DNA of 24,000 bases from contig DGQK01000023.1 of NCBI GenBank assembly GCA_002390745.1, positions 46,104 to 70,103 on the forward strand, given 5' to 3'. The DNA comes from Bacteroidetes bacterium UBA4416 (GTDB lineage Bacteria; Bacteroidota; Bacteroidia; B-17B0; Aurantibacillaceae). The notes beneath the pieces were generated by a model. It was not told where the DNA came from. It made no database searches and saw only the letters and a program-made list of their open reading frames with translations. Within the stretch, counting starts at the first letter, position 1. Each line of letters begins with the position of its first letter. Positions 14,562-14,708 of this stretch are shown in pieces. The position numbers were made by a program, and so were the translations under genes.

Positions 14562-14634
14562 AAAGAGTGCCGTGTAGTACAGTTACTTCATCCTGAAAAT
14601 ATGACACCAGTCTGTACTCAACTTTCGCCTCTTT
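14562..14634 (+). ncRNA. Mini Y-RNA-like unit 6 (type a loop) carrying only an anticodon-loop-like hairpin
   Basis: Outer AAAGAG/CTCTTT; loop 5' TGCCGTGT, 3' CAACTTTCGC; inner AGTACAG/CTGTACT. The interior is TTAC-TCAT-CCTGAAAAT-ATGA, and the loop contains CTGAAAA. Confidence 0.6.
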
Positions 14635-14639
14635 GATCA

Positions 14640-14708
14640 AAAGGTGCCGTTGAAAAGAGTTACTTCACTTTTAATGAACATAAACACTTTTTTCGCTTAT
14701 TGCCCTTT
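14640..14708 (+). ncRNA. Mini Y-RNA-like unit 7 (type b loop) carrying only an anticodon-loop-like hairpin
   Basis: Outer AAAGG/CCTTT; loop 5' TGCCGTT, 3' GCTTATTGC; inner GAAAAGAG/CTTTTTTC. The interior is TTAC-TTCA-CTTTTAA-TGAA, and its loop is identical to the tRNA-Lys anticodon loop. Confidence 0.6.

Follow-up and report, generated by a model that had tools for sequence, protein, structure and literature searches.

We identified two tandem small RNAs, at positions 14563-14633 and 14640-14708 on the plus strand of a 24,000-nt stretch of the Bacteroidetes bacterium UBA4416 genome (contig DGQK01000023.1; hereafter the window), each of which carries a tRNA-like anticodon loop at the tip of a scaffold that resembles bacterial Y RNAs. 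Comparison across related genomes firmly supports the structure predicted for these two units, as small noncoding RNAs of a Bacteroidota-wide Y-RNA family associated with Rsr, the Ro60 ortholog. Published Y RNAs of the YrlA type have no anticodon loop, so Y RNAs displaying anticodon loops are a new form within the known bacterial Y RNAs.

The two RNAs, named U5 and U6 and referred to here as minis, are imperfect hairpins of ~70 nt lying directly after an exonuclease stop codon and 3.9 kb downstream of the rsr stop codon, on the same strand. In U5 the basal helix AAGAG-U-GC / GC-CUCUU pairs 14563-14567 with 14629-14633 and, beyond a bulged U at 14568, GC with GC (14569-70/14627-28); it is followed by the second helix AGUACAG / CUGUACU (14576-14582/14612-14618) and an ACUUC motif (14585-14589). 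The loop CUGAAAA (14593-14599) stands above a 4-bp UCAU/AUGA stem and is closed by a C.U mismatch. The basal helix of U6, AAAGG-U-GC / GC-CCUUU, is built in the same way (14640-14644/14704-14708, bulged U 14645, GC/GC 14646-47/14702-03) and carries the second helix GAAAAGAGU / ACUUUUUUC (14652-14660/14686-14694), with the tip UUCA (14664-67), CUUUUAA (14668-74) and UGAA (14675-78), which is present in the minimum free energy (MFE) structure. Both loops conform to the anticodon-loop pattern of Y32, U33 and purine 37, on stems of 4 bp in U6 and 4 bp plus the C.U mismatch in U5, compared with 5 bp in a canonical anticodon stem. No tRNA cloverleaf was called by ARAGORN or Rfam on 14562-14708, and the Rfam YrlA model (RF02553) did not match them at any threshold.

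These results agree with most of what an initial annotation, made from the window alone, had claimed. It had placed the two units correctly (the first is now trimmed from 14562-14634), and had described a two-stem, internal-loop scaffold common to the neighbouring Y-like RNAs, with a short hairpin on the family-wide ACUUC as its interior, as was found here. The loop of U6 is, as it had stated, identical to the anticodon loop of the window's own tRNA-Lys(UUU) at 11639-11712. Its suggestion that the U5 loop is Phe-like holds in sequence, since tRNA-Phe genes in related loci have precisely this loop, CUGAAAA (that of the window's tRNA-Phe is UUGAAAA), and holds less well in structure, where the C.U closing mismatch gives a 9-nt loop in the MFE structure. 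U5 is therefore the less faithful anticodon-loop mimic.

To define the family, 580 Rsr relatives were collected from genome contigs, and 80 Bacteroidota loci with Rsr of 64-81% identity were scanned together with the window (81 loci, cited below by L numbers where needed). A unit was accepted by the scanner if it had the 5' motif and if its basal helix, 2-bp step and second helix could all pair. The scaffold consists of a 5+2 bp basal helix with a bulged U, a 5' G(C/U)CGU motif, an asymmetric internal loop and a second helix of 7-9 bp; in minis the tip is a 3-5 bp stem built on an invariant ACUUC and a 7-nt loop. Over 1.52 Mb the scan returned 380 units on the rsr strand and only 8, none of them a mini, on the opposite one. 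Nearly all (356 of 360 units) lay within 5 kb downstream of rsr, a region making up 24.5% of the sequence, at a median distance of 488 nt. Units were present in 79 of the 81 loci, with up to nine Y RNAs per locus, and minis in 61 of the 81. The length of the interior, inside the second helix, was trimodal, at 14-32 nt (89 minis), 39-68 nt and 73-106 nt, corresponding to mini, mid-size (mostly T-arm-only) and full tRNA-like classes. The T-loop motif occurred in none of the 89 minis, whereas a module of T-arm, acceptor hairpin and D-arm was present in 151 of 204 full-size units, for example 11485-11632 in the window. Minis span Chitinophagales, Flavobacteriales, Sphingobacteriales and Cytophagales, and their lengths concentrate in a narrow mode of 20-30 nt.

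From 32 minis, among them U5 (58.1 bits), we built a covariance model; it gave 332 matches at E<=1e-3, every one of them on the rsr strand. In the model alignment helix 1 was paired in 98.6% and helix 2 in 88.9% of cases, and 15 of the 16 pairs showed compensatory changes. Covariation scored 0.587, as compared with 0.192 for shuffled alignments (0 of 500 shuffles reached it), and fell to at most 0.167 when the 3' partners were slid. The helix of the anticodon stem-loop (ASL) was paired in only 58.5% on this alignment because full-size units are misaligned there; in the minis themselves it has 3-5 bp of varied pair types. Compensation was also seen within the window, where the 27-nt 5' motif NNNNN-U-G[C/U]CGU-N8-12-ACUUC has six copies, all of them plus-strand (11032, 11137, 11208, 11485, 14563, 14640), and the basal helix changes as AAAGG/CCUUU, AAGAG/CUCUU and AAUGG/CCAUU, with GU/AC replacing GC/GC.

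We compared the mini tips with shuffled sequences and with real tRNA genes. In 57 of the 89 minis CUUC is followed directly by a hairpin of at least 3 bp that closes a 7-nt loop (31±4.4 in shuffles), and 39 of these 57 combined U33 with a purine at 37, as against 4.4±2.0 and at most 11 in shuffles. Twenty of the 89 mini loops were identical at 7/7 positions to real anticodon loops of tRNA genes in the same sequences, while 1000 shuffles gave 0.28±0.53 and never more than 3, figures that overstate independence because the sequences are phylogenetically related. The comparison with tRNA anticodon loops at homologous loci that the initial annotation had proposed thus came out in its favor. The loops also follow the tRNA rule for position 37: of 13 distinct loops whose anticodon ends in G, 9 have G37, compared with 1 of 27 otherwise (p = 2e-5). 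The commonest identities were Lys, Asp and Asn, with Lys-UUU in 8 loci; Asp-GUC minis, in 7 loci with GC-CUGUCAC-GC, share the 11-mer GCCUGUCACGC with E. coli tRNA-Asp. Others were Asn-GUU, Phe-GAA, Tyr-GUA, Ser-UGA, Leu-UAG/CAA/UAA, Ile-GAU, Gly-UCC, Glu-UUC (CUUUCAC, with C38), Trp-CCA and Pro-UGG. Mini stems are unlike the cognate tRNA anticodon stems (UUCA/UGAA in U6 versus CCGUC/GACGG in tRNA-Lys), therefore the loop alone is copied.

The identity of the displayed loop switches between close relatives. Orthologs of the tandem mini pair exist in L006, L005 and L004. The loop of the second mini in the window and these three loci reads CUUUUAA, CUUGAAA, CUUUUAA and CUGUUAA, so that only positions 34-36 vary (UUU, UGA, UUU, GUU) and C32, U33, A37 and A38 are fixed; its closing pair shows a compensatory A-U to G-C change. 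In the closest relative, L166, a metagenome contig syntenic with the window at 80-87% nucleotide identity, an ortholog of U6 has an unchanged loop, and the U5 loop CUGAAAA is replaced by UUUGGGA, which matches the tRNA-Pro loop of related loci at every position, G37 among them, with flanks and scaffold intact. Likewise, the loop of the full-size unit U4 (11485-11632) changes from CUUCUAA (Arg-UCU) to CUGUUAA (Asn-GUU) with its UUCGA/UCGGG stem unchanged. Over these three units 7 of 21 loop positions had diverged, compared with 35 of 270 elsewhere (p = 0.019). Only such explicit examples were used, as an all-against-all comparison of "orthologous" loops was noisy owing to arbitrary loop registers in subtypes that have no ASL.

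The full-size units carry a 5-bp ASL (UUCGA-loop-UCGGG) 4-5 nt before the T-arm, as in tRNA, and then a closed acceptor hairpin and a D-arm. Because of this spacing and order, we read them as circularly permuted tRNAs with the break between the D arm and the anticodon arm. U4 illustrates the arrangement, with the ASL UUCGA-CUUCUAA-UCGGG (Arg-UCU), an AGAUU variable region, the T-arm, the closed acceptor hairpin, UA and the D-arm. The initial annotation had called the unit starting at 11484 Arg-UCU-like, and the loop of U4 indeed equals those of real tRNA-Arg(UCU) genes in L004, L008 and L078. ARAGORN tRNA calls in four full-size units were rejected, since the called acceptor and D arms were spurious and only the anticodon arm, variable region and T-arm were tRNA-like.

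YrlA RNAs (RF02553; PMC4201824; 10.1101/312249) are the closest known relatives. Their hallmarks are a position within about 4 kb of a Ro60 ortholog on the same strand and a 5' GNCGAAN0-1G in a bulged end helix. The units described here likewise adjoin rsr on the same strand, often in several copies; their ends form a bulged helix with a GNCG-type motif; they lie in an RtcB repair operon setting; and their full-size siblings share the T-arm, closed acceptor hairpin and D-arm of YrlA. They differ from YrlA in having an ASL, which in minis is the sole module, present without the tRNA-like module of YrlA; one published account (10.1101/312249) says that YrlA "lacks the anticodon loop", with the Y stem in its place. 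The motif differs as well, being G(C/U)CGU and not GNCGAA (the GNCG is kept, the AA is not) in a terminal bulged helix that covaries, and the window's best YrlA scores, 25.1 bits (11496-11622) and 20.7 bits (11890-11984), are far below the RF02553 gathering threshold of 69 bits. A literature search whose coverage stopped short of the supplementary tables of Chen 2014 and of Burroughs & Aravind 2016 returned no description of anticodon-loop Y RNAs, variable-anticodon arrays or Bacteroidota Y RNAs. This outcome, together with the account in 10.1101/312249, is consistent with the statement of the initial annotation that the arrangement had not been described.

By description, the minis also resemble YrlB of S. 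Typhimurium and M. smegmatis and Yrn2 of D. radiodurans, long hairpins with small pyrimidine-rich loops, in being long imperfect hairpins in the same operon as tRNA-like units (loop pyrimidines are 5/7 in CUUUUAA and 2/7 in CUGAAAA). Unlike the minis, YrlB and Yrn2 as described have no reported anticodon-loop identity or strain-variable triplet. Phage tRNAs that counter anticodon nucleases (PMC10264068, PMC11555353, PMC11464382) provide a second parallel, as they also act at the RNA level, occur in arrays and are under selection on the anticodon loop. Those phage tRNAs are functional tRNAs with loops mutated off target, whereas the minis are non-tRNA hairpins with canonical loops on what is predicted to be a Ro60-binding-type scaffold, in a cellular genome. 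As a third parallel, the E. coli thrS operator is an anticodon-arm mimic in mRNA that is recognised by ThrRS. There too a hairpin's 7-nt loop copies a tRNA anticodon loop for an anticodon-reading protein, the partner in the case of the minis being presumed; unlike the minis, the thrS operator is cis-regulatory, has a single fixed identity and comes without a Ro60 scaffold or arrays.

The window is a Bacteroidota-type chromosome segment carrying an RNA-repair island, with a Por_Secre_tail (type IX secretion system) protein at 17372-20878. The order of the island is RNA ligase, seven tRNA genes, WYL-WCX regulator, Rsr, a noncoding stretch, SPFH protein, S24-like protein, exonuclease, minis, RtcB and RlaP. 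Pfam searches supported the neighbours named by the initial annotation, namely the RNA ligase Rnl (35-622), Rsr (9186-10703, plus strand; TROVE and Ro60 vWA domains), a DEDDh/RNase_T-family 3'-5' exonuclease (13926-14468, plus strand) immediately upstream of the minis, RtcB RNA ligase (21115-22542, plus strand) and the RlaP nucleotidyltransferase (23151-23936, plus strand), whose function has been published (PMC12776372). The exonuclease-minis gene order is also found in L006. The WYL-WCX regulator (7916-8932, minus strand) is divergent from rsr, an arrangement kept in most related loci (L001-L040), and sits where RtcR does in proteobacterial rsr-rtcBA operons. The noncoding stretch (10700-12340) contains the tRNA-Lys(UUU) gene, on the plus strand inside the Y array, with the anticodon arm CCGUC-CUUUUAA-GACGG. 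A cluster at 2214-7922, between the tRNA array and the WYL gene, encodes STM4015-family, ATP-grasp, HAD phosphatase, sulfatase-like and two radical-SAM proteins. No nuclease or toxin was recognised by NCBIfam, PADLOC or lenient Pfam searches among the open reading frames at 15245-15883, 15880-16506, 16657-17364 and 22682-23173.

Besides U4, U5 and U6, further Y-like units lie on the plus strand of the window. U1 (11032-11124) is a mid-size unit whose scaffold carries a T-arm only (GGGGG-UUCGAAU-CCCCC). U2 (11137-11200; 35.8 bits, E 7e-8, outside the seed alignment) is a third, degenerate mini that the initial annotation had overlooked when it named the other two; it has the 5' motif and the second helix UAUAAGG/CCUUAUA without a 7-nt anticodon-like loop. 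L166 has neither U1 nor U2, and U3 (11208-11334), a full-size tRNA-like unit, is conserved there. The unit at 11345-11475 (MFE z = -3.4) combines the variant 5' motif GGCGU with a T-arm and an acceptor-like hairpin; by comparison with L166, ~15 nt have been lost from it that form, in the latter, an anticodon-arm-like hairpin CCAUCA-UACCUGUCG-UGAUGG containing CUGUC. The element at 11890-11995 has the canonical YrlA-type layout, with two T-arms, a closed acceptor-like hairpin and a D-arm, and without an anticodon arm or the GYCGU 5' motif. It scored 29.4 bits with the Rfam tRNA model (gathering threshold 29; anticodon arm reduced to 3 nt) and 20.7 bits with YrlA. Over the whole window, Rfam at gathering thresholds returned tRNAs only, and in E-value mode weak YrlA matches on full-size units only.

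Two more elements flank the minis. Directly after them, 14718-14781 is a tRNA-like element with a 7-bp acceptor stem GGAUAAA/UUUAUCC and a T-arm CAAGG-UUCGAAU-CCUUG, in which an "anticodon" stem GUAUG/CAUGC closes an oligo-U loop of 6 U, shortened to 4 U in L166. The element is otherwise retained there, and ARAGORN makes no tRNA call on it. Pairing of the U5 loop (UGAAAA) with UUUUCA of this element was considered and rejected, as the L166 loop UUUGGGA comes without a compensating change. Upstream, an 84-nt hairpin (14470-14553, MFE z = -2.5) starts with GUGCCGU at the exonuclease stop codon; it has no family scaffold and is largely different in sequence in L166. Genuine Y-like arrays also occurred in three contigs classed as viral in IMG/VR, L087 (minus strand, 8 units), L118 and L146, which are candidate phage or misclassified host islands; their loops include CUUGUAA (Thr), CUGCUAA (Ser-GCU) and CUUCAAA (anticodon UCA). 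A viral-contig scan with TGCCGT-N10-11-TACTTCR-N7-YGAA gave 80 matches, nearly all of them chance matches in coding DNA with non-anticodon loops and true arrays in these three contigs only; the set served as a null and provided no evidence of phage carriage.

tRNA genes are frequent around rsr. The seven-gene array of the window (884-1906; Leu-UAG x2, Gln, Ile-UAU, Arg-ACG, Phe, His) lies directly after the RNA ligase gene, and in related loci 6-16 tRNA genes flank rsr, some interleaved with Y units. Some tRNA-Asp genes in arrays beside rsr have unusual loops, CUGUCUA or CUGUCUC with a pyrimidine at 37 (L008:368, L013:4192, L016:9602, L017:9618, L030:11685, L037:11971, L045:20990, L047:20975, L053:20528, L056:2260, L078:1283), while Asp-type minis keep the canonical CUGUCAC. 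Unusual loops were also seen in tRNA-Glu (UUUUCGA) and tRNA-Arg (AUACGAA) genes of L013, L016 and L017. Such loops beside rsr recall the phage tRNAs that escape anticodon nucleases by loop mutation (PMC10264068).

As to function, the displayed loops may, as the initial annotation had proposed, act as decoys or sensors for anticodon nucleases on Rsr-bound Y RNAs, a reading to which we assign a probability of roughly one half. Such a role is plausible from the context of RtcB, RlaP, Rnl, the exonuclease, the WYL regulator and the tRNA arrays. The RNAs would be co-transcribed with the rsr-SPFH-S24-exonuclease genes and then released from the common transcript by processing; elsewhere, Y RNAs mature from polycistronic precursors, which can include tRNA. 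Rsr would bind the basal helix and stabilise the RNAs, by analogy with the GNCGAA motif of YrlA, which is thought to contact Ro60. The displayed anticodon loop could then be a bait for proteins that read anticodon loops, the likeliest targets being anticodon-loop ribotoxins of competitors, phage or abortive-infection systems. The RNAs might serve either as competitive decoys that RtcB can reseal or as damage sensors feeding the WYL regulator, acting alongside the island's repair enzymes and tRNA gene arrays, and anticodon switching from strain to strain would reflect changing toxin specificities. Ribotoxins are favoured as partners because the adjoining enzymes mend such damage, RtcB by ligating cut ends and RlaP by refilling cut anticodon loops, including those of tRNA-Asp (PMC12776372), because YrlA has previously been suggested as a competitive inhibitor of an anticodon nuclease (PMC7790460), and because the fast, triplet-focused turnover resembles conflict-driven evolution. 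A broader and more tentative possibility is that Bacteroidota maintain a strain-variable repertoire of Ro60-tethered baits, as many as nine in a locus and each with a different anticodon loop, whose triplets are exchanged under an arms race, forming one anti-ribotoxin island with spare tRNAs of altered loop (e.g., tRNA-Asp U37), with RtcB, RlaP and Rnl, and with a WYL regulator that senses cut baits.

Several observations weigh against the decoy or sensor reading. No anticodon nuclease was recognised in the window by NCBIfam, PADLOC or lenient Pfam searches, and Salmonella YrlA is not cleaved by an SOS-induced nuclease (PMC7790460). The displayed anticodons cover roughly 17 amino-acid identities, therefore there is no obvious restriction to known toxin targets. 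The mimicry itself is uneven: 32 of the 89 minis have no 7-nt-loop hairpin, many Flavobacterium minis have G32 or other off-register loops, ASL stems are short in minis (3-5 bp), U5 needs its C.U closing mismatch to give a 7-nt loop, and the MFE fold of U4 does not form its ASL. In addition, with sequences that are related the shuffle statistics overstate independence, and the excess divergence of loops over scaffold is only modestly significant.

Another explanation, which we consider rather unlikely, is that each loop recruits a host protein recognising anticodon loops to Rsr, so that each Y RNA specifies a partner or substrate class; candidates are class IIb aminoacyl-tRNA synthetases (Lys/Asp/Asn), Tgt (GUN loops), wobble-U modification enzymes, RtcB and RlaP. 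Lys, Asp and Asn are indeed the commonest mini identities, GUN loops in minihelices are Tgt substrates, and the activity of RlaP on cut tRNA-Asp loops fits as well. Known Y RNAs link Ro60 to effectors, as in the Rsr-Y RNA-PNPase machine. However, some 17 identities and rapid switching between close strains fit conserved housekeeping enzymes poorly, and no anticodon-binding housekeeping enzyme was recognised among the genes of the locus. The same full anticodon-loop geometry, including U33 and the rule for position 37, could instead let an Rsr-tethered loop pair with its cognate codon when tRNA is depleted, either on mRNA or at a stalled ribosome whose A site is empty, bringing in Rsr and the exonuclease. 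The ASL stem plus second helix is about as long as the anticodon-D arm of tRNA, and the locus encodes an exonuclease and an SPFH protein. This idea is nevertheless improbable, being pure conjecture for RNAs whose ASL stems are 3-5 bp with internal loops, and Pfam-type protein searches revealed no ribosome-rescue factor in the window.

The remaining two explanations give the displayed loops no role in trans. The minis might have arisen by deletion from full-size tRNA-like Y RNAs, or from tRNA gene fragments, and have no function, the loops being left over. Units are gained and lost, as the absence of U1 and U2 from L166 shows, unit 11345-11475 has lost its anticodon-arm segment, U2 is degenerate, and about a third of minis have no hairpin. 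Decay is still quite improbable, because minis are kept in most loci over four orders with a tight length mode, their helices covary, their loops change into other bona fide anticodon loops and not into decayed ones, and their stems are unlike those of the cognate tRNAs. Finally, the minis are intergenic, on the coding strand and directly after a stop codon, which would also suit terminators, attenuators or processing signals of the operon transcript, and a sigma-70 promoter/terminator scan, with Bacteroidota promoters outside its coverage, detected no separate promoter for them. The same scan found no terminator-like site at the minis, their scaffold is common to the tRNA-like Y units clustered after rsr, and their positions relative to genes vary in other loci, making such a cis role very improbable.

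What the tRNA-like part of bacterial Y RNAs does, and why Ro60 is found in RtcB repair operons, have been questions since 2013-2014. Several hundred new Y-RNA loci were found here, in a phylum for which the literature search gave no published description of them. They add a modular principle, whereby a single Ro60 scaffold can display just an ASL, just a T-arm or an entire permuted tRNA. Bare anticodon loops of many identities, swapped between close relatives, point to factors that read anticodon loops as the partners, and this partner question becomes testable with defined RNAs of ~70 nt and known ribotoxins. If the bait model is true, these RNAs would constitute a decoy arm of anti-toxin and anti-phage defence, complementing tRNA repair and nuclease-resistant tRNAs.

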